From positions 124,001 to 188,000 of the forward strand of contig NZ_MWQY01000001.1 of NCBI RefSeq assembly GCF_002087085.1: DNA of 64,000 nt, read 5' to 3'. The translations under genes and the position numbers were made by a program. Position 1 is the stretch's first letter. Each line of letters starts with the position of its first letter. The notes below the pieces were generated by a model. The model was not told the origin of the DNA. It made no database searches and worked only from the letters and a program-made list of their open reading frames with translations. Shown here piece by piece: positions 6,966 through 61,510 of the stretch.

Positions 6966-8059
6966 AGGCGTACGATCCTTCCCCGGGCGCGTTTTTGTAC
7001 AGCATCCCTGTATTTTTCCTGCAGAGTCTCTCCCCGGGCCTGTTCGATGCTTCCCGGAAGGGCGAAACGCTCCGGATTACCCACCAGGGGTTCGATTTTC
7101 CGCAGGAGCAGGGAGAACCCGACGGAGGGACTGTCGAACCCGAAGGTCTCCAGGAGCCTGTCGTAGCGTCCGCCGGAGAGAAAGGCGGAATCCACTCCCT
7201 CCAGGTAGGCCTGAAAAACAATACCGGTGTGGTAATTCTGGCTGCCCGTCTCGGACAGATCGATCCTGACCGGTCCGGAGGAACCGCTGGTTTCGATAAT
7301 TTTTGCCAGTTCCAGGAGCCTGCTCAGATGGGGACTGCAGGCGGGACCAACGGAATCTCCCTGCCGTCTGAGAAACTCTTCGAACTCTCCCGAGCTTCCC
7401 AGAAAGCTGAAAAGCCCGATCAGTGGTTCCGGATCCGCGGCTCCCCCCTGAAGCAGGAGGTTTTTCATGGTTTCCGTGTCCCGCAGGGCAATAGCGGAAA
7501 AGAGTTCCTTTGCTTCTTCGTCCTGCAGGCCCCTGGCGGCTTCATGGGCAAGGGCCGCGGAACCGAGGTGCAGAACCGCATCCACCTTGAGAAACTCAAG
7601 AATCTCAGCCGCCATGAGCAGCACCTCAGCGTCTCCCTCCAGCCCCGGTATGCCGATAAGTTCGGCCCCGATCTGGTAGAATTCATTTTTCGAGATATCG
7701 TCGCTCTGCTGATGCCGCAGTATTGAATCGGCATACCAGACCCGGACGGGAAGGTCTTCCCGGTTCAGGGCCATACCCATCTGCTTGGCAAGAAAAAGGG
7801 TCACGTCGCTGCGAAGCAGGAGCAGTTCTCCCTCCCGGTCCATGAGCCGGTATACCCGTTCGGAGGAGGAGGTATCCAGCAGGGGTTTATAGATATCGTA
7901 AAAATCAAAAACCGGCGTTTCCGCGGGAAGATATCCCCATCCGGTAAAAATGCCGTCGATTTCGCTCAGGATTCTGCGGTGCCGGAAGGCTTCTTCCAGA
8001 AAGAACCCTTCTGTTCCCGGGGGAATCTGAAGCAGCCGTCGTTTCGGGGTCATAGTCAA
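6962..8059 (-). CDS. hisZ: ATP phosphoribosyltransferase regulatory subunit
   Basis: HisRS-like motifs LRSDVT, EFYQIGAELIG, YHTGIVF, GGRYDRLL; overlaps hisG by ATGA. Confidence 0.92.
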   Translation of the reverse strand: MTMTPKRRLLQIPPGTEGFFLEEAFRHRRILSEIDGIFTGWGYLPAETPVFDFYDIYKPLLDTSSSERVYRLMDREGELLLLRSDVTLFLAKQMGMALNREDLPVRVWYADSILRHQQSDDISKNEFYQIGAELIGIPGLEGDAEVLLMAAEILEFLKVDAVLHLGSAALAHEAARGLQDEEAKELFSAIALRDTETMKNLLLQGGAADPEPLIGLFSFLGSSGEFEEFLRRQGDSVGPACSPHLSRLLELAKIIETSGSSGPVRIDLSETGSQNYHTGIVFQAYLEGVDSAFLSGGRYDRLLETFGFDSPSVGFSLLLRKIEPLVGNPERFALPGSIEQARGETLQEKYRDAVQKRARGRIVRL

Positions 8060-10500: not shown

Positions 10501-12570
10501 TCAGCCTCCGTTTATCAGCTCTTCTTCAAAGGGTCGGGTACGATTGATAACCTGTCTCAAGAGGGAGTTCTCCGGTTTCAGCAGTCCAGGATCATCCTGC
10601 AGGATTTTTCGCGCCAGATTGCGGGCCCTGAGCATGGTTTCTCCATCCGCCGCGGGGTCCGCGAAGCGGAGGCGCAGGAATCCCGCCTGTTCGGTTCCTG
10701 TCATGTTTCCCGGGCCGCGGATCTTCAGGTCCTCCTCGGCCACTGCAAAGCCGTCGGAGTTCTCCATCATTACCCTGAGGCGCCGTTTTCCTTCCTCGCT
10801 CAGATCCGGTGCGTAGACCAGGAACATATAGCTCTGAAACTCTCCCCGGCCGACCCGGCCCCGGAGCTGATGGAGGGCGGCCAGGCCGAAGCGTTCCGCA
10901 TGTTCCACCACCATGCAGGTGGCGTTGGGAACGTCCACGCCGACCTCCACCACGCTGGTGGAGACCAGGATGTCGATCTCTCCCGAACTGAAGGACCTCA
11001 TCACCGAGACCTTCTCCTCCTCGTCCAGGCGGGAATGAATCAGTCCGAGGCGGAAATCGGGGAAGCGCTGCTTCAGGGCCTCGTACATACCTTCCGCGTC
11101 TTTCAGGTCCATCTTACTGCTTTCGGCGATCAGGGGATAGACGCAGTAGGCCTGTCGTCCGGTCCGGACCTCCTTTTTAAGCCATTCGTAGACCTTCTCT
11201 TCCCGCCCCATGCGGGCCAGATGGGTTATTACCGGTTTACGTCCCGGCGGCATGCTGCGGATAACGGAGACGTCCAGGTCGCCGAAAACGGTCATGGCCA
11301 GGGTACGGGGAATGGGGGTGGCGGTCATGACCAGCGTGTCGGGCTCCTCCCCCTTCTGCGACAAAGCTACCCGCTGGAGGACCCCGAAGCGCTGCTGTTC
11401 GTCGATTATTGCCAGCCCCAGGCATCTGAAACGGACCCCCTCGGAGAAGAGGGCGTGGGTTCCGATAAGCAGGTCGATCTCCCCGGATTCCAGCCGGGAG
11501 AGGATTTCCTCTCTGGCCCGGGACTGCACCGAACCTGTAAGAAGGGCCAGTCGCACCCCCGCGGGTTCCAGAAGTCGGGCGGCGTTTTCCGCATGCTGTC
11601 GGGCCAGGAGTTCGGTGGGGGCCATGAAGGCGGCCTGTTCACCGGCTTCGATGCTTTCACAGGCTGCAAGAAATGCGGTGAGGGTCTTGCCGCTTCCCAC
11701 GTCTCCCTGTATGAGACGCGCCATGGGCCGTGAACCCCTCAGATCCTCCCGGATCTCCCGGAGGACGGTTTTCTGATCCCGGGTCAGCTCAAAGGGAAGG
11801 GACTCCAGTACCCGGCGGGCAAGGGTTCCCCGGGCTGTGGTCCTCTCCTTTCTGGTGGAACGGAGAGCCAGACCCCGGCGGGCGATGCTGAGCTGGAGAT
11901 AGAAAAACTCCTCCCAGGCCAGGGCTCGCCGGGCAAGTCGGACCTCGTCAAGGGTTTCGGGACAGTGAAGTCCCTGGAGCTGCTTCTTTTTACTGACGGG
12001 AATTTCCTCCCGGGCGTATATGGGGGGGAGTTCGTCTTCTATCTGGTCGATGTATTTGGCCAGGCCTTCGTGTATCGCTTTACGGATTGCTCCCTGACGC
12101 AGGCTGGCCCCCGCCGGATAGATCGGTACCAGCGAGCCGAAGGAGCTTGTTCCGGAGGGAGTTTCCGATGCTTCAAACTCGAATGACGAAGCCTGGATTT
12201 CCCCGAAGCGGTAAGAAAACTGTCCGTAAATCCGGATCTGTGCTCCCACGGGGAGCTTCTGCTGCAGAAAGTTGCGGCCGAAGCAGTTCAGGGCGGCCCT
12301 GCCGGAGGAGTCCTCGATCCAGACCTTCAAGGTACGTCTCCTGCCGAAACCAAACCAGTCGTGGGCAATGACGGTGGCGATGGTGTTGACCGGACTGCCG
12401 CCGACTCCTTTGGACAGGGGAACTTCCGTCTTCCGGTCCTCGTAGTATCGGGGGGCGTGGAGCAGGAGATCTCCGAGGCTTTCAATTCCCAGGGAGGCAA
12501 AAGCCTCGGCGGTTCGAGGGCCGATCCCTTTGAGTTCCCCTGGTTGTGTCCGCAGCTCCCGCAGAAACAC
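10501..12570 (-). CDS. recG: ATP-dependent DNA helicase RecG
   Basis: QGDVGSGKT, IIDEQQRFGV, MTATPIPRT, LHQLRGRVGRG, EDLKIRGPG. Confidence 0.97.
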   Translation of the reverse strand: MFLRELRTQPGELKGIGPRTAEAFASLGIESLGDLLLHAPRYYEDRKTEVPLSKGVGGSPVNTIATVIAHDWFGFGRRRTLKVWIEDSSGRAALNCFGRNFLQQKLPVGAQIRIYGQFSYRFGEIQASSFEFEASETPSGTSSFGSLVPIYPAGASLRQGAIRKAIHEGLAKYIDQIEDELPPIYAREEIPVSKKKQLQGLHCPETLDEVRLARRALAWEEFFYLQLSIARRGLALRSTRKERTTARGTLARRVLESLPFELTRDQKTVLREIREDLRGSRPMARLIQGDVGSGKTLTAFLAACESIEAGEQAAFMAPTELLARQHAENAARLLEPAGVRLALLTGSVQSRAREEILSRLESGEIDLLIGTHALFSEGVRFRCLGLAIIDEQQRFGVLQRVALSQKGEEPDTLVMTATPIPRTLAMTVFGDLDVSVIRSMPPGRKPVITHLARMGREEKVYEWLKKEVRTGRQAYCVYPLIAESSKMDLKDAEGMYEALKQRFPDFRLGLIHSRLDEEEKVSVMRSFSSGEIDILVSTSVVEVGVDVPNATCMVVEHAERFGLAALHQLRGRVGRGEFQSYMFLVYAPDLSEEGKRRLRVMMENSDGFAVAEEDLKIRGPGNMTGTEQAGFLRLRFADPAADGETMLRARNLARKILQDDPGLLKPENSLLRQVINRTRPFEEELINGG

Positions 12571-12579
12571 GTGGGCCGG

Positions 12580-13167
12580 TTAAAAGGGCAGGGAGGCCAG
12601 GAGCCCCTGAATCTGGTAGAACACCAGGTTGCCCAGAAGCCGGGTCAAAAGGAGTATGGCGCCGCTGAGGGCAAGGCCGGTCTGATAGGTCACGTTCTGT
12701 CCCCGGAGGATGACACGGGAGAAATATCGGAGGATCGGGGCGATAATAATGTCCAGGGTCTGAATAAAGGGGGAGACCATGGAGGCGCGAAAGAGAAGGG
12801 TAATAAAACGAATCAGAACAAGAATAAAGAAAAAGGTGAGAACCCAGCCGACGGCCCCCCACAGGGAGCCCACGATAATGGCAAGAACGATCCCCAGGGA
12901 TATGCTTCCCGTCAGGGCCAGGCGGTTTGTAATGTTCAGGATAATTACCAGCACGATAAGCGCGGCCAGGGGAGAAAAGTCCATGGAACCCGCCCGCAGA
13001 AAGGGGAACCTGCGGAACCAGTAGAGGTAGGGGTCCGTAACCGAACGGAGAACCTCCATGGCTCTTCCGTAGCTCGCTCCCTGGAACCAGGTCATCAGAA
13101 CCCGGATAAAGATCAGAATCATGTAGACCGAGAGGGCCCCGGAGATAAAGCGCATTACCTGTTGCAT
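12580..13167 (-). CDS. YggT family membrane protein
   Basis: LIFIRVLMTWF...VTDPYL...DFSPL; two YGGT repeats; hydrophobic. Confidence 0.88.
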   Translation of the reverse strand: MQQVMRFISGALSVYMILIFIRVLMTWFQGASYGRAMEVLRSVTDPYLYWFRRFPFLRAGSMDFSPLAALIVLVIILNITNRLALTGSISLGIVLAIIVGSLWGAVGWVLTFFFILVLIRFITLLFRASMVSPFIQTLDIIIAPILRYFSRVILRGQNVTYQTGLALSGAILLLTRLLGNLVFYQIQGLLASLPF

Positions 13168-49900: not shown

Positions 49901-50617
49901 TCATTCCCGCCATTCTTCTGCGGCTAAAGGCAATTCGTTAAGTTCAGCTCGGGCCTCTTGCCAGCCTGGATAGTGCTTTGTGAGCAAGGAAATAAAACGG
50001 TCGCTGTGAGTTGGCTCTACCAGGTGGAGCATCTCATGTACAACAACGTATTCTATCAGATCCTTTGGTTTTTTGACTAGTTCAGTGTTTAACCTGATAT
50101 GCCCCGCCGTGTGATTGCACCCACCCCATTTGGTCTTCATTCGCTGAAGAAAATAGGCTGTTACCTGTACACCGAGTTTTGGTTCCCACTTACTGATCAG
50201 GGTGGGGATAAGCTCATGCAGGAGGGTCTTATGCCATTTGTGGATAATTGATGCTCTTTTAGACTGATCGCTTCCTGGTCGAATACTCAGTGTGATCCGT
50301 TTATGGTCAACCTTTACAAAAGGTTTTGCGTCCTGTTCAAGAACTGAAAGCAGGTGTCTCCGTCCCCATAAATAATGGCTTTCCCGTTCAATGAATTCCC
50401 GTGGTGTTTCCCGATCCTGGCTACGCAGTTTTTCTTGCTGCTCACGTATCCAACCAATCTTTGTGATCGCGTAGGCACGAGCTACTTCAAGTCGTGTTTC
50501 CTTAGGGGCGGATAATGTCACACGGCCTTCTGGCGGATGAACGGAAAGATGGACATTTTTAATGTTCTTCCGTGTCACCGCAATTGCGATATCACCAATT
50601 AAAATCGTCTCGTTCAT
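49901..50617 (-). CDS. M48/YgjP (DUF45) family metallopeptidase-like protein associated with type I RM
   Basis: [26 protein letters not shown] (HExxH); overlaps the hsdR stop by ATGA. Confidence 0.9.
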
Positions 50618-53600
50618 GCATAGCCCGGCTGGTTCTTGATAATTTCAAATATCGCCTTTGTTGCTTCACGATCCCGCCCAACAAGAGGAAACAGCGCATT
50701 GAGGACTTGTTTCTCACGTGTGTCGTCACCCCTCCATCCTGCCGGGGCTTTTTCTCTCATGGCATGGTCGATTTCAAGCGTCAGGTCAAGTCGCGTTGTT
50801 CCGAAGTACTCCGGGGTTTCTCTTGCTTCTCCGGCAGCAGTCGGATCGGCAAGAATCGAGGGCAGATTATTGTAGATCACCATCGCTTCACGTTTACCAA
50901 CCAGTTCAGCCGGGATTTCCTCATCAGCCTGACCTTTGGCCATCTGCTCAACCAGAGCTTCAGCTTTACGGAGAAAAGCTTCATAGGATTCCGTGTCATC
51001 GCGCTTTTGTTTTATAAGGTCATCAAACAACTTCGACAGTTCTTCGTAAAACCTGGGATCGGTCAACTGATCGCGAATGATCGTCTTGCGAACGTTGTTG
51101 ATTATGCCCTCGGCAACAGCATTCTTTGAGAGTTTTCCTTTATCGTTGAGCTTCTTCGCGATGGCGTCATGGATACCGGTCTCTATGATCAATTCAACCA
51201 GTGAATAGTTGTTCACCGTTCCCAGAGGGTCAGCTGGTTCGGCTTGAATATAGGTGTTGATGAGGTGGCGCATGTCCGCCTCATAGGGCTTGATGTCAAG
51301 CTCTTCACCGGAGTGCTTCTTGATCGCAGCACGAATCTCACTGAAGAATTCAACTTCTCTGTTCAGCAAGGCGATTTCGGTAGAGGAGTAACCGGCTTCT
51401 TCGAGATCCTGAGAAATGGCGGCAAAAGCCCGAACAAAGGTTGCCACCGATTTGTAGAACGAAATACGCAGAGCCTCAGTGTCATTCAGCGCATTTGGAT
51501 CATTGGCGTCACCACAGAAGTAGCGCAGATACTGCTCTACCTCACGCGGTGCAGGAACCGGCTCACAAAGATATTTCAAGGCTTCGCGGGCAGCTTCGAG
51601 CTTCGCTTTTCCCTCTTTCAACCAATCCCTGAGATGGATGTTGTTGCTCCCACCGCTGCCTTCGTCAATGTCCAACTTGTCCGAGCTGTAAACCGCAATG
51701 GCCTGCTGCACGTCCCTAAAAAGCTCCTTGAAATCGACGATATACCCATAATCCTTATCGTCTCCATCGAGACGGTTTGTGCGACAAATGGCTTGAAATA
51801 GATTATGGTCGTGTAGTTCGTTATCGAGGTAGATATAAGAACAGGATGGGGCATCGAAGCCGGTTAAAAGCTTGCTGACCACGATCAGCAATTTGCAGTT
51901 GGCAGGCTCTTCAATAAAGCGCCGCTTGGTTTCATCCTCATACTGTTTGGTCGTCTGGCCGTTCTTCAGCACATGCTGGGTGTAGGTATCGAACTTGTAG
52001 CGCTCATCGCTGTTGGCGGGCTCTCTTGAGATCGCGTTATGGTTTGGCTCGTAAGAGGTGATGATGCCACAGTACTGGCCAAAAGAAGTGTTCTGGAACA
52101 GCCGGAAATAGTGACAGGCGTCATAAATGGAAGCCGCAACCAGAATGGCCGTACCCCGATCGTTATTCAGACGCGGTTTGAGGCCAAAATCCTCGATTAT
52201 GTTGGCGACAATGCGTTGCTTGCGCTCCCCTGCGCTCATTAATTCTTCCATGGTTGCCCATCGTTTGCGCAGAATAGCCTTCTGGAAATTATTCAGGTTC
52301 CTGGTCTTTCGATCGAACCAGGCATCAATGGCGTTCTGTGATGTCAGTCGCTGCGGTACGTCGCGGGCTTCGTATTTGAGGTCAAGAATTACGCCGTCGG
52401 CGACTCCTTGATGAAATTTATAGGTATGGATATAAGTACCGAACACCTCACGGGTGGTCTTCCTGTCTTTACGCAGCAACGGGGTACCGGTAAAGCCGAT
52501 GAAGATGGCGTCTTGCATCCAGTGTTTCATCTGTTTGTTCATATCGCCACCTTGGGTCCGGTGGCACTCATCCACAAAGATGTAAAAACGCCCATGAATC
52601 GGCGGCGGGTCATTCTTGATGCCAGGATCGAACTTGTGGATGAGCGCACAGAGCAGGCGTGGTGTGGTAGCGCTGAGTTTCTCCAAGAACTGCGCTCGCG
52701 AGGTAATACGAGGCGATGGTGCTTCCTCGCCGATCACCCCGGCGTTGCGCACGACACCCTCGATTTGCTTATCCAACTCGTCGCGGTCGGTTATAACCAG
52801 AATTCGCGCATTCGGATCGTGCTCCATCAGCCATTTGGCGATCAACACCATGAGAATGCTTTTGCCGCTGCCCTGGGTATGCCAGATGACTCCCCCTTCT
52901 CGTTGTCGGATGCGCTCCTGAGCTGCTTTGACGCCGAAATACTGGTGAGGTCTGGGTACCTTCTTCTGACCCGCATCATAAATTATGAAGTTGCGGATCA
53001 TGTCCAGCAGTCGCTTTTTATCGCACATCTGGGCTATAGGTCTGTCGAGCAATGTCCCGGTCTCCATTGCACTGCCACCTTCCTCGTCTTTCCATTGAAC
53101 GAAGAACTGCTCGGGGGTACCGGTGGTGCCGTAACGGAGTCCCTGAGAATCGCTGCCCGCGAAGACGAGCTGAACCGTGCTGAAAAAGCCGATATTAAAA
53201 ATCTCTTCCTGGTTGGTAATCAGCTGGCGTACACCGTCAGCCAGTTCCACTGAACTGCGTTTAAGTTCGATCACGCCGATGGCGATACCGTTGATATACA
53301 AAACCAGATCGGGGCGTCGTTCATAGCCGCCTTTCAGAGTTACTTCCTCGGCCAGGGCAAAATCGTTTTCCTCCGGATGCTCCCAGTCGATGATGTGCAC
53401 ATCTACGTGTGGTTGACCTGGTGCAAGCAGCACCTTGACCGGGTAGCGCAACAGGTTATAGGTGCGCATGTTGGCCTGGTAGAGGGCGACGCCAGTGGTG
53501 TCGGCAGCGGTTTCCAGCTTTTGCAGAGCGGCGGATATGTGGGCATCCGAATAGCCGCGCCTATTGAGGTTTTCCCTGAGATAGTCTGTCTCGATTGGAC

Positions 53601-53724
53601 GGTTGTTTTCTCGTTTGTGCCAGTCTCCAAGGTAGTGATAACCCAGATAACTCGGGTTGGTTGCATCTGTAAAAAGAGATATTACCCGGGTTTGGGTGGT
53701 TCGTTCGGGTCGTACTCTCTCCAT
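50614..53724 (-). CDS. hsdR: Type I restriction endonuclease subunit R
   Basis: PDLVLYING...IELKR nuclease motif, [35 protein letters not shown]. Confidence 0.96.
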
Positions 53725-55658
53725 CACGTTAAACCATCCCGTGGCTGACCCTCGAATACCGCCTCTTCTACATCCTCGTCGCGAAGGCGGTCAATTTCAT
53801 CATCGTCTTCTGTTGTAGTATCAAAAGCATCTGCAATGTAGAGCAAATTCCCCAACTCTTCTCTAAGAATTTCTCGTCGGGCATTGAAGAATTCCGGGAA
53901 GTCGTCAAACGCTAACTTCAATTCCTCAGGGAAATAGTTGCTCGTGATGAAATGCTCACGTTCACGATTGGACATTCTCTGAAGCCAGTCCTTCAATGGT
54001 GTTGCGTTCTTGGACTGATTCTGCGACCCTTCCATAAGTTGCAGATTGGGAACCTGGTCGCGCCATTCCCACCATTGTGCGTACTGCTCAGAATTAATGC
54101 CCATTGCCTCAAATTCTTCACGACAGAACTTTGAAGCCGGATGGATATGGTCCTGATGGAAAGAATTCTCTCCGTACCGTAGCTGAGGATAAAGCAGTTG
54201 TAGTACGGCAAATGCGGCAGGTCCTTTGCGGTATTCAATAAACCGATTTACATCTTCTGCGGTAACCTTGAGTGATTTGCCGCCCGGCAACTGTACATCG
54301 GCAAAACATCTAAAGTCAAATGTCTTGTAGGTATCTCTAAGTGGATAAAACCCATCGGATTGTCGGGCGTCTGCTCGTAATGTATTTCGAATTTTGCTGA
54401 GGAGCTGGTCCTGGGATGATCCAAAAACTTGTTTCAGTAATGCATGAACCAGATAAAGTCTCAGCTCATTCCGGGACTTTTTATCCAGAGAACCACCTTT
54501 ATATATGTAGTACACAATTGGGATAGTAGCATTGTTGGATGTGAGTGTCTCTTTTGAAAAACCGAACTCTACCAATAGTTCAACCGTTCTCACTATGGCT
54601 TTGGCAATCTTTTGCCACTGTTCACGTATTGTCTGTACATTTTCAGCCTTGAACGAATGAACCTTATAAAGCACAGGGCCGTCGCTGAGAACAAGACAAC
54701 AACGCATAAGATATTCTGTACCAAATCCAAAACCCTGACCTAATCCGTTAATTGTTTTTTGAATTGTTTCGATCTCTTCTCGCCCGTTGTCCCAGGTGGC
54801 TACAATGGTCGAAAACAGAAGATCTGTTTTGCTTAATACAGTCCCGCCACTGTTGACTCGCACGAATATCTTCAGGATGTCTTCTAGGTCATCCTTGGAG
54901 ACCTCAAAATAGTTAATCAGAGGTTCTTCCCGAACCCGCTTGTTAAGATCCGCCAACCCTTTGCGGACAAACCTGCGTGCACCACGAAGCGCTTCCGCTT
55001 GTGACGAATCAACGCAGGAGATGGCCACCTGGTCGATGTAGTGATCAATGTCGGGATCTTTCGGCCATTCCATAATCTCTCCGACGCGGAACCAGCACAT
55101 ATGTTCTTTGTTTGTGGGATTATCCTGCGTTTGACGCATGGTGTGGCTATTGACAGCAGCCGTGGTTAGAAAGCGAAATTCAAAATTTCGCTGTTCATCT
55201 TGTTCTAGCCCCCCGTCTATGTTCTGTCGATAGGGCAGGGAGAGAAGGTTTAGATATAGATATGTTTTCTTGTATGCATCCGGGCTTGATGAACGTTTCC
55301 GGTAGCCCTTTTCGGTATGTGTACCCTGGAGCCCAATATAGATTGAGCTCAGTCGTTGCTGGCCGTCTAGTACACCGGTAATTTTATCCGGTGTAAAGGC
55401 ACCGACTTTCCTATCATTGAAAGGTGTTCGCTCGTCGTAGAATCTATTGAACTCGTAAAACACATAGTTATTCGCGTTCTTTTTATCGAGTTTCCAAAAA
55501 AGAAAAGTCCCAAAGGGATAACCACGCATAATCGAGTCGAATAGCAACTCAATTTGCCCTTTGCCCCAAACAAAGCGTCGTTGCAGTGCGGGCAGAAACA
55601 TACGGCCGCCTTCGATCTCGCTTATAGCATCATACAGAGACATTTTATGGTAACTCAT
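53724..55658 (-). CDS. GmrSD-type (DUF262 plus C-terminal HNH/DUF1524-like) modification-dependent type IV restriction enzyme
   Basis: [30 protein letters not shown]...DL; C-terminal HQDHIHP...NLQLM....NQSKN. Confidence 0.9.
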
Positions 55659-55778
55659 ATCAACCTCTTTTTCTCGTTAATAGTTTGCACATTATGGCAG
55701 AACGGAACATACAGGAGATTTTACGCCGCTGTTTAAGTTCTGCGAGCCCTGGATCCAATAATATTTTGTCGATTTCTT

Positions 55779-56789
55779 TTATAGCTTGTATAGTGTGCGA
55801 TACCAATCCGCCCACTCCTTAAGTGAATTATTTCGAAGTGTTTCTGCTGCCTGGATAACATCCCTCGAAGTAAATATTGAAAATTTCGAATTGTTGCCGA
55901 TCAGGTCTATGTAGTCTTTGATGGAAGCATCAAGAGCCGTATTCCTGGGATGCCGAACAACTGAGAAGTGGGCATGCATGAAGGTCCCTTGCTGTTCTAC
56001 TGCGAATGTCAGCAGTTGGTTACGCCAAAGCTGGTTCATGCCTCCCTGGAATGGACACTCTTCGTGTTTTGCATGATTTACAAAGAAATCTCGGTGGATT
56101 TCAGAAATGTCCCAGTACCTGTACCCACAGATATCGTGGTAGTAGCAGGAATCTTTGCTTTCCATAATCTCACGGAAGTTTCGCGTACAGTCGTGGCGTA
56201 TTTTATCCGTACGCCCCTTGCTCTTATATCCTCCACATTTCGTGAACTCCTTTTCCGTCAACTTGTGTTCAATCAACCAAAGGCATGGTTCGTCGTTGTG
56301 GTTGTAGTAGGCAATCGCCAGATCAGCATCGGTTCCGGCCATTGCGCTCTTATCGTTAAGCGCACCTGTGGGTTCATCCCAATATTCAATTCTCCAGCCG
56401 TGATCCAATTTATCAGTGGCGAGACGTGCGAAGTCTGGATTAAGTTTTCTGATAATCTCATTTGCTCCGGGATTCAGTAAAATTGGCAAGAACAGATTAA
56501 TGTTTGCCGCCTGCGAGCTGGCCATGTGGTTGAAGTACTTGTGGATACGGAAAGGGAAACGATCATGGTGTTCCATCATCCGTGAGACAAGGTCCCTGTG
56601 CAGAACCCGGAGATTTTCAGCGTACCGTTCTGGCAGGATGGCATCATATTCAATGCCGCGGTCGTGTCCAGGATCCTTGGTGATATTTTCCCATTTCCAG
56701 TTGATTAGGTGGACATACATTTCGAGTTGGAAGTTGTTTAGATTATTGGGCAGTTTGTAATCTTGTCCGTCTATTTTTTGTATTCTCAT
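55779..56789 (-). CDS. Putative PD-(D/E)XK restriction-endonuclease-fold nuclease (PGN_0703-like), Cys-rich
   Basis: HMASSQAANINLF, IEY, GTDADLAI, IEHKLTEKEF (D...ExK), C...C...C...CPF, NQLWRNQLL. Confidence 0.72.
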   Translation of the reverse strand: MRIQKIDGQDYKLPNNLNNFQLEMYVHLINWKWENITKDPGHDRGIEYDAILPERYAENLRVLHRDLVSRMMEHHDRFPFRIHKYFNHMASSQAANINLFLPILLNPGANEIIRKLNPDFARLATDKLDHGWRIEYWDEPTGALNDKSAMAGTDADLAIAYYNHNDEPCLWLIEHKLTEKEFTKCGGYKSKGRTDKIRHDCTRNFREIMESKDSCYYHDICGYRYWDISEIHRDFFVNHAKHEECPFQGGMNQLWRNQLLTFAVEQQGTFMHAHFSVVRHPRNTALDASIKDYIDLIGNNSKFSIFTSRDVIQAAETLRNNSLKEWADWYRTLYKL

Positions 56790-56823: not shown

Positions 56824-57369
56824 TCATGATTTCACAATAAACGGTTGAGGGCTTAGATTTCCCGGTAGATATAACGGATGAGTCGGTGTTCCGTTTTTTG
56901 TCAGGCGCAGATAGCAGAGTCGCGGATGATCGCTGAGGAGAGCGACCACTTCGTTGCTATGCCGATGAAGTGCTTTGGGAGGCAAGCCGTACGCCAGTAC
57001 CACGGTTTCGGCTTCGGCGGCCATCTCAATAATCATTTGATCGTTTTGCGGGCCCACCGGGTCATGCACCTTAAGCAGTCGATTCTTGTCGGTTGCCCGG
57101 TAGGCATGGACATTGCCTACCAGCTGTCCGCCAAAACCCCAAGAGCGTGAAAACTTGCCTGTCTTACGGAGCGTTGGATCGCTGAAGTCGAGGCACGCTA
57201 CGCTGGGATTCATCAACAGCCAGAGCACCAGCGGTCGAGACGGGTCCCAAATTTCGCGCAACTGATAACGGTATCGCTGGCATGGGGAAAATACGGCGGT
57301 GACCTTGGAATCGTCCGGCCAGGCGGGGCGTACCTTGCCGCTTGGGTCGTGTTTTGGAGACGGGCTCAT
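56824..57369 (-). CDS. DUF1643 domain protein
   Basis: FSPCQRYRYQL...W, LMNPS, DPTLR, WGFG, NVHAYRAT, VVLAYG, TKNGTPTHPLY; its ATG overlaps the hsdS stop. Confidence 0.88.
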   Translation of the reverse strand: MSPSPKHDPSGKVRPAWPDDSKVTAVFSPCQRYRYQLREIWDPSRPLVLWLLMNPSVACLDFSDPTLRKTGKFSRSWGFGGQLVGNVHAYRATDKNRLLKVHDPVGPQNDQMIIEMAAEAETVVLAYGLPPKALHRHSNEVVALLSDHPRLCYLRLTKNGTPTHPLYLPGNLSPQPFIVKS

Positions 57370-58658
57370 ACAGTTGTTCTCGACGTTGCTACGAGTCGTG
57401 TCTTCCCGGTCAGCAGTTCCTGCATCATGGTCAGTTTGAGATCTTTGGTTTTGTCGCGGCGCTGTTCCAGAACGGCGATCTCGGCGTCCATGTCGGAGAG
57501 GACGGTGGCGATGGCGGTTTGCTCTTTGGTCTCTGGGACTGGAATATCGATCTCAAGATATTCATTTATTCGGATGTTGGGATATGTCGATGCCTCACAC
57601 AATGATGGCAACATACTTTTTATGCGATTTGAAGTGAGGAAAAAATATAAGAAGTTCGGGAAAATCGCTTTCGGACGAAGTCGCATCAGGAAATTGCTGA
57701 ATAGAAAAGCTCCAGCCAATGACCGATCAATAAGGACCATCTTTCCGGACTGAATGCTTGCCGCTGAGCCACTGGATTTCACAACGACCAAATCGCCAAC
57801 CGAAACGCCATAAGTCGCTACCTGTTCAGAGGTAAAGAACCGTGTTTGCATGATTTTGCCATTCCATCGGTCATCGTTCGAAATTTGGGCGGTTGTTGCG
57901 ACTGGCATTGGCAACAAAGTTGGTGATTGCCGTTCGACACCATATGTCCCACTCGGAGCGCAGTCGACTATCTCCCTAAGGCGCTTAACCTCCCACTCCC
58001 CCTCAAACCCCGGCAGGCGGGTCTCGCCGGTGAGGAGTTGCTGCATGGCAGCCTGTTTGAGATTGCGCTTCTTGGCGATCAGCCGGTCAAGTCCATCCAG
58101 CAGGGCATCCACGTCGCTCAAGGCGGTGGCGATGGCGCGTTGCTCGGGAAGCGTTGGAATGGGTGCAAGGACAAGCCCGAGATTCTGTTGCCCAACATTG
58201 GCGCGAACTGCGCCTTGTCCCATTGGAACAATTTGTGAACGGATGACGGAAGCGCGGAGTGCATACCCGGAATATACAGGGTTAAGGCGCTTGTTGAGCG
58301 GTCTACCTCGAATGACAAATCCTCCAAAAACGACACGTTCGGTTCCAAGATATGTTGCCGCTAAAGCAACCTCATCCTGCGTCTCCGAGGTGCGATTGAA
58401 TAGCACGTCACCCATGTGGACTGCGTAAGAAGAAATTACTGATTCAGGCAACGTAACCTGGCCGGTAACTTCAGGCCCGTGAATATGAGTATAGGTAATC
58501 GGTTCAAGCACATTGATAAAGCGGACACCCTGACCATACGATGCTTTGTCTGCATTGACACCGTTGCGGAATGCAAAGAGCTCAGCAAATGGTACTATCT
58601 CCCAATCTTCCGGAATCACCCCCACCTCGGTTTGTTTGTATCCCGGCTTCAGTTCCAT
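57366..58658 (-). CDS. hsdS: Type I RM specificity subunit
   Basis: GYKQTEVGVIPEDW; two TRDs each followed by a conserved P..EQ.AIA..LSD.DA...MQ.LLTG.TRL helix. Confidence 0.95.
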   Translation of the reverse strand: MELKPGYKQTEVGVIPEDWEIVPFAELFAFRNGVNADKASYGQGVRFINVLEPITYTHIHGPEVTGQVTLPESVISSYAVHMGDVLFNRTSETQDEVALAATYLGTERVVFGGFVIRGRPLNKRLNPVYSGYALRASVIRSQIVPMGQGAVRANVGQQNLGLVLAPIPTLPEQRAIATALSDVDALLDGLDRLIAKKRNLKQAAMQQLLTGETRLPGFEGEWEVKRLREIVDCAPSGTYGVERQSPTLLPMPVATTAQISNDDRWNGKIMQTRFFTSEQVATYGVSVGDLVVVKSSGSAASIQSGKMVLIDRSLAGAFLFSNFLMRLRPKAIFPNFLYFFLTSNRIKSMLPSLCEASTYPNIRINEYLEIDIPVPETKEQTAIATVLSDMDAEIAVLEQRRDKTKDLKLTMMQELLTGKTRLVATSRTTV

Positions 58659-61387
58659 ACCGCCCCCATTCGCTTGAGGTGTTCATCGACACGGGCCGAC
58701 AGGTCTGTCACTTCGCTCACCAGTTTCGGGAGCGGCGTGTCGTACCGTTCGGCAAGCTGACGAATGCGGGTGGTGAGAGTCTGAGAGACGCGATCCAGTT
58801 CACCCTGCACGGCCATGGCCAGAGTGGCCAGCCACTTGTCATCTACGACCAGGGTCTTGATCTCGTCCACGCTGAGCTGTGGGTATTTTTCATAGGCCAG
58901 CTTGTCCAGTGCGGCATCCGCTTCCTTGACCTTGCTTTTGAGTGCGCTTTGCTCGTCGAGCAGCGCCAGGAAACGAACTGTGGCATGCAGATCGACAAGA
59001 TTCTCCGGCAGAGGGTCGGCCTTGAGTCGCTTCTGGTATTGCTTCTCTACTTTGGCGAGAAGCTCAGACGCTTCTTTGGTTGCAGCCTTCTGCTCTTTGT
59101 CCGCTTCAAGATAACTGGTAAGTATCGCGCTCTCCTTCGGATCGCTGGTCGCGGCCAGTCGATCTTTGACTGCCTTGAGGGTCAAATTGCCCTTGTTGTT
59201 CTTCAACACGGAAATAAAGTGGTGATCGGTGAGAACTCGGATCTGCGTAGCGTGTTCCTCGGCCTGATCCATGAGGGCGCTGTAAGCGCGACTTGCGGTT
59301 TTGTCTTCCTCATTCCACACAGCGACGAGCGCCTGGGTGTATGCCTCCTGGGCGTCGCCCTTGGTGGAAACATCCTTCAGCGCACCCTCTTCACCGCCGT
59401 GCTCTTCGGCTAACTCGATGAGGCCGGTGCTAACAGCATCCAGTTCGTTTTGAAGGGCATCCAGCTCGGCCTGCTCTTCGGCGAAATAGCGAGCGACGAT
59501 AGTGGGTTTGGGGATCAGGTCGCAGACCCAGCCTTTGTCTTTCATCTCGCCCTTTTTCTTGCCGCTCTTGACCTCTTCCATGACACGATAGGGCCTGGCC
59601 ACCCAGCCATCGGCGGCGATCAGGTAGCAATCGTCCTGGATGGCTTCAGCCCAATAATCCATGAGGTGCTGGTAGATGTCATAGGCATCAAGCAGCGGGG
59701 CATTACGGAAATTTGTCAGCAAGTCCTCGGCAATGGTCTCAATCAGCGCTTTGGGGTGTCCTTCCTTGTTAAAGCCTTTCAGGGCCGGTGTGTTGGTTGT
59801 GCGCCAATGATCAAAGATTTTCGTTACGGCCGTTTTAAATGCCGTAAATTCGCTGTGACCCAGAATGGCCGACTTCACAGTAGAAATAGGCGATTTCAAC
59901 CTGGAATAACCGGGACGACCAGCGCTTTCGAAGAGTTCTTGCCGAACGCCGGGGATCACCTGCCAATAGGCATTCAGTGCATTGATATCCCGGTCGGGAA
60001 TCCCTCCGCGCAAATGACCGTCGATGTCCTGAATGTCCTCCGGGGAGGTAGAGTCGATGTAGCGTGGCAGATTAAGGTTGTAATCGTTTTTGGGGCCGGA
60101 AATCTCGTCGAAAGGCACCATGCGGGCATAGCGGGGTGTATTGGTCTGCTTGTTAAAGGTGTCGACAATCCTATGGATGTCCTGCTCGCGCAGACGGTTC
60201 TTGTTGCCGTCCTTGATAAAACCCTTGGAGGCGTCGATCATGAATACGCCCTTGCGCGCAGGCGCATTTTCCTTGTCGAGCACCAGGATGCATGCGGGAA
60301 TACCGGTGCCGTAAAACAGGTTGGCAGGCAGCCCGATGATACCTTTCAGATACCCGGAGCGGACCAGACGCTTGCGAATAACGGCCTCGGCATTGCCGCG
60401 AAACAGCACACCGTGCGGCAGGATGCAGGCCGCTTTGCCGGTACTTTTCATAGAGCGAATAATATGCAGCAGGTAAGCATAGTCACCCTGTTTTGCAGGT
60501 GGCTCTCCCCATTCAAATCGCTGGTACAGATCAGCGGCAGGCGAGAATCCGGTACTCCAGGCTTTGTCCGAAAACGGCGGATTTGCTACAACAAAGTCGT
60601 AGGTCCGCAAGTTCTCGCCATCCTTGAACTTTGGAGATGCGAGCGTGTTCCCATTAAGGATATTGGCTGTCGGAAAATCGTGCAGTATCATGTTCATGCG
60701 GGCAAGACCTGCGTTGGTCACGTCTTTTTCCTGCCCTTCAAGGGTGATGCGTGTGTCTGCCTCGGCAGCCACCTTTAAAAGCAGTGATCCGGATCCACAG
60801 GTCGGGTCATAGGCTGTAGTTGAGGCAACAGCATTCTGTGCAGAAATACCTATGACCTTCGCCATGACGCGGCTGACCTCAGAAGGTGTATAGAACTGCC
60901 CTTTGCTCTTGCCGCTCTCAGTAGCAAAGTGCCGCATGAGGTACTCGTAGGCATCCCCTAGAATATCGTCGTGATCGGCGCGGTTCCTGGAAAAATCGAG
61001 CTCAGGCTTTTGGAAGATGCTCACCAGATTGGTGAGTCTATCCACCATCGCCTTGCCCTCTCCGAGTTTGTTCGGGTCGTTAAAGTCGGGAAAGTCGCTG
61101 CGGGCCAGACGTGTATTGTTGTCAATCAGCGGCTGAATGATCTGCGTGTTGATCTTGTCGCCGATATCGCTCTTGCCCTTGAGTTTAATCATATCCTGAA
61201 AGCTGGAACCTTTTGGTATGACTACTGGTGGCTCAAACCCATCGTAGTTGGCGTATTTATCGGATATATATTTTATAAACAACATAAAAAGGACATAGTC
61301 CTTGTACTGGCTGGCATCCATTCCGCCGCGTAATTCATCGCAACTAGCCCAAAGGGATGAGTAAAGCTCAGATTTCTTGATGGCCAC
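58649..61387 (-). CDS. hsdM: Type I RM N6-adenine methyltransferase subunit M, with long C-terminal helical extension
   Basis: LWASCDELRGGMD, GQFYTP, DPTCGSGSLL, NPPF, LPHGVLFRG. Start reassigned to GTG 61387 (MAIKKSELY). Confidence 0.96.
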   Translation of the reverse strand: MAIKKSELYSSLWASCDELRGGMDASQYKDYVLFMLFIKYISDKYANYDGFEPPVVIPKGSSFQDMIKLKGKSDIGDKINTQIIQPLIDNNTRLARSDFPDFNDPNKLGEGKAMVDRLTNLVSIFQKPELDFSRNRADHDDILGDAYEYLMRHFATESGKSKGQFYTPSEVSRVMAKVIGISAQNAVASTTAYDPTCGSGSLLLKVAAEADTRITLEGQEKDVTNAGLARMNMILHDFPTANILNGNTLASPKFKDGENLRTYDFVVANPPFSDKAWSTGFSPAADLYQRFEWGEPPAKQGDYAYLLHIIRSMKSTGKAACILPHGVLFRGNAEAVIRKRLVRSGYLKGIIGLPANLFYGTGIPACILVLDKENAPARKGVFMIDASKGFIKDGNKNRLREQDIHRIVDTFNKQTNTPRYARMVPFDEISGPKNDYNLNLPRYIDSTSPEDIQDIDGHLRGGIPDRDINALNAYWQVIPGVRQELFESAGRPGYSRLKSPISTVKSAILGHSEFTAFKTAVTKIFDHWRTTNTPALKGFNKEGHPKALIETIAEDLLTNFRNAPLLDAYDIYQHLMDYWAEAIQDDCYLIAADGWVARPYRVMEEVKSGKKKGEMKDKGWVCDLIPKPTIVARYFAEEQAELDALQNELDAVSTGLIELAEEHGGEEGALKDVSTKGDAQEAYTQALVAVWNEEDKTASRAYSALMDQAEEHATQIRVLTDHHFISVLKNNKGNLTLKAVKDRLAATSDPKESAILTSYLEADKEQKAATKEASELLAKVEKQYQKRLKADPLPENLVDLHATVRFLALLDEQSALKSKVKEADAALDKLAYEKYPQLSVDEIKTLVVDDKWLATLAMAVQGELDRVSQTLTTRIRQLAERYDTPLPKLVSEVTDLSARVDEHLKRMGAVWN

Positions 61388-61510
61388 AATTCTATCCTTT
61401 TGATGTTCTTTTAGTCGACGTTCCGCCGGATTTTTTGAAGCGCTGAGTCGTAAGATCACACACCGTTATTTATAACATATTTTTGGCCTCGATGTGAAAT
61501 TACAAACGAT

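Follow-up and report, generated by a model that had tools for sequence, protein, structure and literature searches.

A DUF1643 protein in the hsdS-hsdR cargo slot of a horizontally mobile type I restriction-modification operon and its possible relation to base-excision enzymes

Type I restriction-modification operons can carry additional genes embedded between hsdS, which encodes the specificity subunit, and hsdR, which encodes the restriction subunit, and PrrC is the paradigm of such embedded genes. Further examples such as HEC-05 are known in PADLOC as 'Hma-embedded candidates', and in related operons the slot holds varied defence cargo. The DNA analysed here, i.e., the window, is a stretch of 64,000 nucleotides of contig NZ_MWQY01000001.1 (assembly GCF_002087085.1, positions 124,001 to 188,000 of the forward strand), in which a gene for a protein of the family DUF1643 occupies this same operon position. 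DUF1643 is a conserved passenger in the hsdS-hsdR cargo slot of a horizontally mobile type I operon. It differs from the other embedded genes in that it is small, has neither an ATPase nor a nuclease domain and is conserved in the operon lineage instead of being sporadic, and there is no sign that the restriction complex restrains it.

The second group of described systems that bears comparison is the uracil-DNA glycosylase (UDG) superfamily. In the accessible part of a study whose motif definitions cover families 1-6 and UdgX, motif A following strand β1 is given in the variants GQDPY, GINPG, GMNPG, GE(A/G)PG, GLAPA and GSLPG, and motif B following strand β4 in the variants HPSPLS, HPSPRN, HPAAVL and HPSPLN (PMC4787834). 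Common to UDGs and DUF1643 are an Asn-Pro after β1, an Asn closing β2, a small residue plus Gly closing β3 and a His-Pro after β4, and both have a similar domain size and colinear predicted elements. In its pattern DUF1643 is nearest to family 3 (SMUG, GMNPG/HPSPRN) and family 2 (MUG, GINPG), in the structure of its predicted model nearest to families 4, 5 and UdgX. The superfamily includes the defence glycosylases Brig1, Brig2 and Brig3, as described in excerpts of the respective reports (PMC11078745; bioRxiv 10.1101/2025.10.29.685425; bioRxiv 10.64898/2026.02.25.707755). Brig proteins and DUF1643 are alike in being small single genes in defence or mobile contexts, in their horizontal spread and in a proposed action on non-canonical bases. 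For the Brig proteins, the UDG membership is seen by standard tools and activities were demonstrated according to the same excerpts, whereas DUF1643 is not recognised in this way, the comparison being one by description and not by sequence.

The affiliation to DUF1643 that was claimed by the earlier note on this DNA is borne out, the window protein being matched over its full length by Pfam DUF1643 (PF07799; E 3.7e-36, 124.6 bits against a cut-off of 22.5, profile positions 1-134 of 134) and moreover by PHROG 3230, a group of unknown function (E 1.3e-44). In coordinates of the window, the gene and the codons of interest are located as follows:

56824..57369, minus strand: DUF1643 gene, 181 amino acids, ATG start, isoelectric point (pI) 9.5 (open reading frame list, Pfam PF07799, PHROG 3230)
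57366..57369, minus strand: ATGA overlap of the DUF1643 start codon and the TGA stop codon of hsdS (read from the sequence)
57202..57210, minus strand: codons of N54-P55-S56, motif-A-like loop following strand 47-52 (sequence, alignment, model)
57178..57186, minus strand: codons of S63-D64-P65, with T66 (57172-57174) a conserved D-P-T loop ahead of helix 65-76 (alignment)
57112..57114, minus strand: codon of N86, final residue of strand 81-86 (alignment; register with the Asn of family-4 UDGs non-significant)
56869..56880, minus strand: codons of H164-P165-L166-Y167, motif-B-like loop following strand 151-153 (alignment)

The four motifs VLWLLMNPS (residues 48-56), LVGNVHAY (83-90), VVLAYG (123-128) and HPLY (164-167), which the earlier note had likened to those of UDGs, are all present and in the order given there. 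Conservation was assessed in an alignment (A1) of 114 sequences, in which the window protein is joined by 4 out of 120 listed close homologues and 109 out of 150 listed representatives; identities to the window protein are 34-74%, and fragments and long or fused forms were left out. The residues R34, N54, S56, D64, N86, G128, H164 and L166 are invariant in all 114 sequences, followed by P55 and T66 (each 113/114), P165 (112/114), R91 (110/114) and Y167 (106/114). Because the key residues are invariant throughout A1, the motif pattern is far from chance.

Searches of the PDB by sequence, performed with the single protein and with the 114-sequence profile, returned chance rows only (coagulation factor XI, E 0.26; a GTPase, E 0.011), and a search of the ESM Atlas returned one unnamed cluster at 0.76. 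No functional study of DUF1643 was found in the full-text literature, as judged from the papers listed and from excerpts of some of them, the papers found under PF07799 being unrelated, and among the matches listed for glycosylase, hsdS, hsdR and 'defense island' no title is about such a gene. What is new is the conserved operon context, the family itself being known; the proposed mechanism is testable but unproven.

The gene order on the minus strand is hsdM, hsdS, DUF1643, a nuclease of the REase-ARP type, GmrSD/HEC-05, hsdR and a YgjP/SprT-like metallopeptidase, with the following genes besides DUF1643:

58649..61459, minus strand: hsdM, type I N6-adenine methyltransferase, 936 amino acids (Pfam N6_Mtase, E 8.1e-95, and HsdM_N; PADLOC MTase_I)
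57366..58658, minus strand: hsdS, type I specificity subunit, 430 amino acids (Pfam Methylase_S; PADLOC Specificity_I, E 2e-81)
55779..56789, minus strand: PD-(D/E)XK nuclease of the REase-ARP/PDDEXK_13 type, 336 amino acids, a separate cargo gene (Pfam)
53724..55658, minus strand: GmrSD-type (type IV) enzyme, HEC-05, 644 amino acids (Pfam GmrSD_N; PADLOC HEC-05, E 9.9e-189)
50614..53727, minus strand: hsdR, type I restriction subunit, 1037 amino acids (Pfam; PADLOC REase_I)
49901..50617, minus strand: YgjP-like/SprT-like metallopeptidase, 238 amino acids (Pfam YgjP-like, E 4e-56)

These genes are closely packed, with overlaps of 10 nucleotides between hsdM and hsdS and of 4 nucleotides each between hsdS and DUF1643, GmrSD and hsdR, and hsdR and the YgjP-like gene; 34 nucleotides lie between the DUF1643 stop and the start of the REase-ARP nuclease and 120 nucleotides between the latter and GmrSD. 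No convincing minus-strand terminator was found between the operon genes in a consensus scan (19 terminator-like sites against 13.2 expected). DUF1643 thus shows the features of an accessory gene of a type I operon, i.e., a position between hsdS and hsdR on the same strand, in a terminator-free arrangement that recurs in related operons. The translational coupling to hsdS proposed earlier was confirmed by the sequence, in which the ATG of DUF1643 lies inside ATGA at 57369-57366, shared with the TGA of hsdS. Since DUF1643 is translationally coupled to hsdS, it should be made whenever the operon is read. In HsdM, the methyltransferase domain finishes at about residue 472, and approximately 460 C-terminal residues are without Pfam match.

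The close subfamily, whose conservation from phylum to phylum is unusual, comprises 119 other listed proteins that are 70-83% identical to the window protein and stem from records of Acidobacteriota, Planctomycetota, Verrucomicrobiota, Nitrospirota and Alphaproteobacteria. The gene context was compared in 36 loci related to the window DUF1643 (individual loci are denoted by L and a number), and the operon hsdM-hsdS-DUF1643-[cargo]-hsdR-YgjP, in which DUF1643 is the fifth conserved component, was found in 8 of them, in several phyla. It is complete in L003, L004, L007, L008, L014 and L017, ends at the contig end in L009 and is decayed in L001. HsdR is 74-76% identical to the window copy in L003, L004, L008, L009, L014 and L017, and hsdS of the operon-bearing loci is merely 34-36% identical to hsdS of the window. 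The YgjP-like gene follows hsdR in L003, L004, L007, L008, L009, L014 and L017 with 50-73% identity; the role of this metallopeptidase beside type I enzymes is unexplained. The ATGA junction upstream of DUF1643 was present in 7 of the 10 junctions inspected (L003, L004, L007, L008, L011, L014, L017). In L007, a 224-amino-acid open reading frame without Pfam match (7312-7986) lies between hsdS and DUF1643 and is itself joined to DUF1643 by ATGA. Moreover, 3' remnants of hsdS encoding 39-95 residues were detected by tblastn directly upstream of DUF1643 in four loci that lack the remaining operon genes, namely L010 (7694-7975), L011 (7831-7983), L012 (5365-5484) and L013 (7858-7974). Either the operon decayed around DUF1643 or DUF1643 travels with a conserved hsdS tail. 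In a further two loci (L024, L032), other type I genes stand beside DUF1643.

The 4-nucleotide overlap with hsdS and the fixed place before hsdR, both kept across phyla, might suggest that DUF1643 partners the type I enzyme in a non-catalytic or regulatory capacity, depends on the complex and modulates, for example, restriction alleviation or assembly. This is very unlikely. Type I genes are absent from the available DNA around at least 22 of the 36 close copies (seven of these contigs are shorter than 3 kb). The copies outside operons are 65-81% identical to the window protein, those inside 72-84%. A tree was built from the window protein, three representatives and the copies of 31 of the 36 loci, without the truncated or frameshifted L032-L036. 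Inside and outside copies are mixed in this tree, whose resolution is poor (6 of 32 inner branches are starred). A separation into clades of inside-operon and outside-operon copies found no support in it. Because the copies found outside operons match the window protein as closely as those inside and are mixed with them in this poorly resolved tree, a regulatory partnership is disfavoured and an autonomous function of DUF1643 is favoured. Furthermore, the wider family occurs in phages, in plasmids and at the truB locus without hsd genes, and the Asn, Asp and His that are invariant at strand ends have the appearance of catalytic residues.

The slot carries further defence-type genes in this and in other operons. 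The space between DUF1643 and hsdR is empty in L008, L009, L014 and L017, whereas an AAA_13 ATPase of 866-873 amino acids follows DUF1643 in L003 (8569-11169) and L004 (8586-11207), in the latter together with a nucleotide cyclase with SMODS and AGS_C domains in the same slot (11274-12584); across operons the slot contents also include REase-ARP, PDDEXK_3, GmrSD and Fic. Other close DUF1643 copies are located beside WYL and GmrSD (L011), AbiEi/AbiEii (L023), an AAA_13 ATPase (L006) or transposases (L005, L027), and a DUF2779 nuclease gene lies upstream of DUF1643 in L022 (3703-5226) and L025 (33-1502), being directly adjacent in L025. Taken together, at least 17 of the 36 related loci have defence-type neighbours of DUF1643, as does the window.

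It was also considered that the REase-ARP nuclease, on which, including the meaning of 'ARP', no paper was found in the full-text literature, might be a functional partner of DUF1643, i.e., that a glycosylase acts together with a nuclease. This was rejected: none of the 36 DUF1643 loci has a REase-ARP homologue beside DUF1643, and such homologues were found in two loci only, both Bacteroidales type I operons that carry them in the hsdS-hsdR slot and lack DUF1643. From these REase-ARP-only operons it follows that the slot is a cargo site in which DUF1643 and REase-ARP are independent passengers. One of the Bacteroidales copies is followed by a GmrSD_N protein (L136, 4001-6858), the other by helix-turn-helix, M78 peptidase and Fic genes; REase-ARP and GmrSD may therefore form a pair, as judged from their recurrence in the Bacteroidales operon slot. 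In the window, REase-ARP and GmrSD/HEC-05 constitute a low-GC insert (GC content 0.445-0.467, 53724-56789) between DUF1643 and hsdR.

The island as a whole is foreign to the host genome. Its GC content is 0.45-0.55 compared to 0.59-0.61 in the flanks, with the minimum over REase-ARP and GmrSD. In five genomes of the same genus neither DUF1643 nor the operon was found, the best HsdR in them being 31% identical, and the DUF1643 family occurs in 4 of 301 genomes sampled within the phylum.

Concerning the function, the reading tentatively favoured here, to which we give somewhat less than an even chance, is that DUF1643 is in this operon a divergent base-excision-type enzyme that acts autonomously from the cargo slot. 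We regard this single-domain protein as either very distantly related to the base-excision enzymes of the UDG superfamily or similar to them by convergence. An AlphaFold2 model of the window protein built with A1 (mean predicted local distance difference test (pLDDT) 96.3, predicted template modelling score (pTM) 0.91) consists of an N-terminal hairpin (22-27, 33-40), β 47-52, helix 65-76, β 81-86, helices 95-100 and 109-119, β 122-125, helix 132-144 and β 151-153. In this predicted model N54-P-S, N86, G128 and H164-P each directly follow or close one of four successive strands, and the polar residues at the C-terminal ends of β1, β2 and β4 are invariant in all 114 relatives. The element order is that of UDGs, i.e., motif A, Asn strand, β3 and motif B, as defined in the accessible part of PMC4787834, and the spacing of the invariant residues also fits motif A, the Asn strand and motif B. 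The longest structural alignments were obtained with UDG families 4, 5 and UdgX, covering 126-129 of the 181 residues. HPLY shares with UDG motif B the His-Pro (H in 114/114, P in 112/114 sequences) and is unlike it in the remainder. A local hhalign comparison of A1 with 28 family-4 UDGs from genomes of the relatives was colinear, in a non-significant register that places N54 on the third position of GEAPG, P55 on its P, N86 on the conserved N, R91 on the R of CRPP and G128 on the G; with a looser setting it extended over 166 columns and HPLY came within 4 residues of the family-4 HPS, in a stretch of low confidence.

A number of observations weigh against this reading, both on the side of kinship and on the side of a role in defence. 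The hhalign comparison with family 4 is not significant (P 0.38), that with 16 SMUG-like UDGs covers 17 columns only, around β1-NP (P 0.008), and in global mode the latter gave nothing. None of the 114 members of A1 matches the Pfam UDG family (PF03167) even at E 10, none of the three UDG-family open reading frames of the genome is among the 40 best of 8,900 open reading frames by the hidden Markov model of the DUF1643 family, and neither NCBIfam nor PADLOC has a model covering DUF1643. With Foldseek, nothing in the PDB reached E ≤1e-3, and the matches listed include no UDG. In motif A, which reads [LM][LM]-N-P-S, the N-P is as in families 2 and 3 and both glycines are replaced. Moreover, the family is not confined to defence islands: DUF1643 was found in 149 of 50,697 phage records and in 1,122 of 72,556 plasmid records, 901 of these plasmids being conjugative, e.g., an IncC plasmid, and it directly follows truB in 10 of the best 30 loci of a second phylum sample, in which 44 of 401 genomes have DUF1643 (L103, L104, L108, L113, L116, L118, L120, L125, L126, L128). 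In the accessible part of one source it is one of the small conserved open reading frames of staphylococcal cassette chromosome (SCC) elements and is counted there as a domain of unknown function (PMC7581432).

The interpretation offered by the earlier note stands in part. The motif order, the element order, the colinear alignment and the length of the structural alignments agree with it, and the Foldseek and Pfam results do not. Likewise, the AlphaFold and Foldseek analysis proposed there yielded a confident model in UDG element order, whereas the top row in the PDB was DPP9 (E 1.6e-3, TMq 0.30). A search of BFVD gave as significant matches two DUF1643-type phage proteins only, with no viral UDG among the matches listed. 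Furthermore, the window protein has three cysteines (C30, C59 and C151) and not the four that hold the 4Fe-4S cluster in UDG families 4 and 5; of the 114 sequences, 77 retain C30 and 6 retain C59. The fold match to UDGs is too weak for proof of UDG kinship, and the result decides neither for the UDG sandwich nor for an unrelated fold, by which the idea of the earlier note would be refuted.

The 2-1-3-4 Rossmann-like sandwich is common, and DUF1643 might be another enzyme built on it, for example an N-hydrolase that acts on free nucleotides, as DNPH1, nucleoside 2-deoxyribosyltransferase, MilB or TIR do, and thereby could cause the depletion or detoxification of a (modified) nucleotide, or else an unrelated hydrolase. 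To our knowledge, an N-P after β1 paired with an H-P after β4 does not occur in these other folds. This enzyme type is distinctly unlikely, as the corresponding structural alignments comprise 88-108 residues only compared to 126-138 for UDGs, and as N-P after β1 and H-P after β4 in that order are a UDG signature according to the accessible part of the source (PMC4787834). The protein is moreover basic (pI 9.5) and its neighbours in phages are DNA-metabolism genes, which also speaks against an enzyme of this type.

As a base-excision-type enzyme, DUF1643 would flip a base out of the DNA, hydrolyse the N-glycosidic bond and leave an abasic site. In UDG families 1 to 3, an Asn or Asp in the third place of motif A positions the water. 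By analogy, this would be the task of N54 in the NPS loop of DUF1643. N86, at the end of β2, would recognise the base, and H164 in HPLY would provide stabilisation to the base as it leaves. Thr66 of DUF1643 aligns with an aromatic residue that follows motif A in the corresponding loop of family-4 UDGs, and because of this the substrate need not be uracil. Within the operon, the most likely role of the enzyme would be a base-level activity against DNA that is beyond the reach of methylation-sensitive restriction, e.g., DNA with non-canonical bases, and it would exert it alongside the type IV GmrSD enzyme of the same slot, acting alone and not as a subunit of the restriction complex.

The neighbours of DUF1643 suggest a role in defence, and a precedent for a defence role directed at modified bases may be seen, by analogy, in Brig1, Brig2 and Brig3. 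Defence is not its sole possible role, given how often DUF1643 turns up in phages, on conjugative plasmids, in SCC elements and at the truB-linked locus. A bolder version, according to which DUF1643 is an unrecognised and very large branch of base-excision enzymes and the operon a two-pronged immune unit, in which the type I enzyme cuts unmodified DNA and the co-translated glycosylase destroys modified DNA that evades restriction, is conceivable and at the same time doubtful.

The distribution of the wider family has to be considered in this respect. It comprises at least 13,333 representative clusters (50% identity, E ≤1e-3). By the first word of the organism name, the phage records include 71 of Pseudomonas, 32 of Caulobacter and 7 of Mycobacterium, and the DUF1643 phage matches listed also contain two SPbeta-like Bacillus phages; in addition, the accessible part of another source describes DUF1643 as insertion-sequence cargo (PMC13231603). 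That the family is common in phages and conjugative plasmids would also be expected from a repair glycosylase, which mobile elements or methyltransferase operons carry for their own DNA, comparable to Vsr with Dcm, and which acts on deaminated, mis-alkylated or otherwise damaged bases instead of phage DNA; its presence in a restriction-modification operon would then reflect self-care or hitch-hiking. In line with this, DNA methyltransferases are located within 3 kb of DUF1643 in 2 of the 7 phage records sampled, with a methyltransferase on each side in Purky and a C5 methylase two genes upstream in LKA5, and in L130, one of the best 30 loci of the 401-genome sample, DUF1643 lies between a D12 and a Dam-like methylase. 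Neighbours of repair type were found in phages as well, namely endonuclease V in Roseobacter phage RDJL Phi 2 and a HIRAN protein in an SPbeta-like phage, and repair or replication genes are near DUF1643 in other sampled phage records. However, most of the phage and genome loci sampled have no methyltransferase nearby, the neighbours of the subfamily to which the window gene belongs are mostly restriction, abortive-infection and other conflict genes, and three canonical UDG-family genes are already present in the genome. The conserved adjacency to truB suggests a housekeeping use in one clade, but it may stem from one ancestral insertion. Considering both sides, such a repair enzyme is an unlikely explanation for the gene in the window.

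The position next to truB is a stable chromosomal home for an otherwise mobile gene. In 6 of the 10 truB loci an open reading frame with RTX repeats is located on the other side of DUF1643, and in three of the ten DUF1643 overlaps the truB stop. In L110, which is outside these ten loci, DUF1643 is followed by an RTX-repeat open reading frame and then by rpsO. In a transposon sequencing (Tn-seq) study of a Thioclava strain, as far as its accessible part reports, one DUF1643 gene was essential in most conditions (PMC9226611). If this gene has its place between truB and rpsO, an arrangement seen in L110, polarity could account for the essentiality.

Few uncharacterised small genes are as common on mobile DNA as DUF1643, which is present on plasmids, in phages, in the SCC core and as insertion-sequence cargo, and four named residues (N54, D64, N86 and H164) make the hypothesis of a base-excision-type activity directly testable. 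If it is false, it would be a useful warning that a motif pattern may look perfect and, on a generic Rossmann-like sandwich, still not suffice for a fold call. If it is true and a non-canonical base is excised, DUF1643 would be a new family of base-excision enzymes, and restriction-modification operons may carry a second weapon that acts on the level of the base, or a repair tool of their own.

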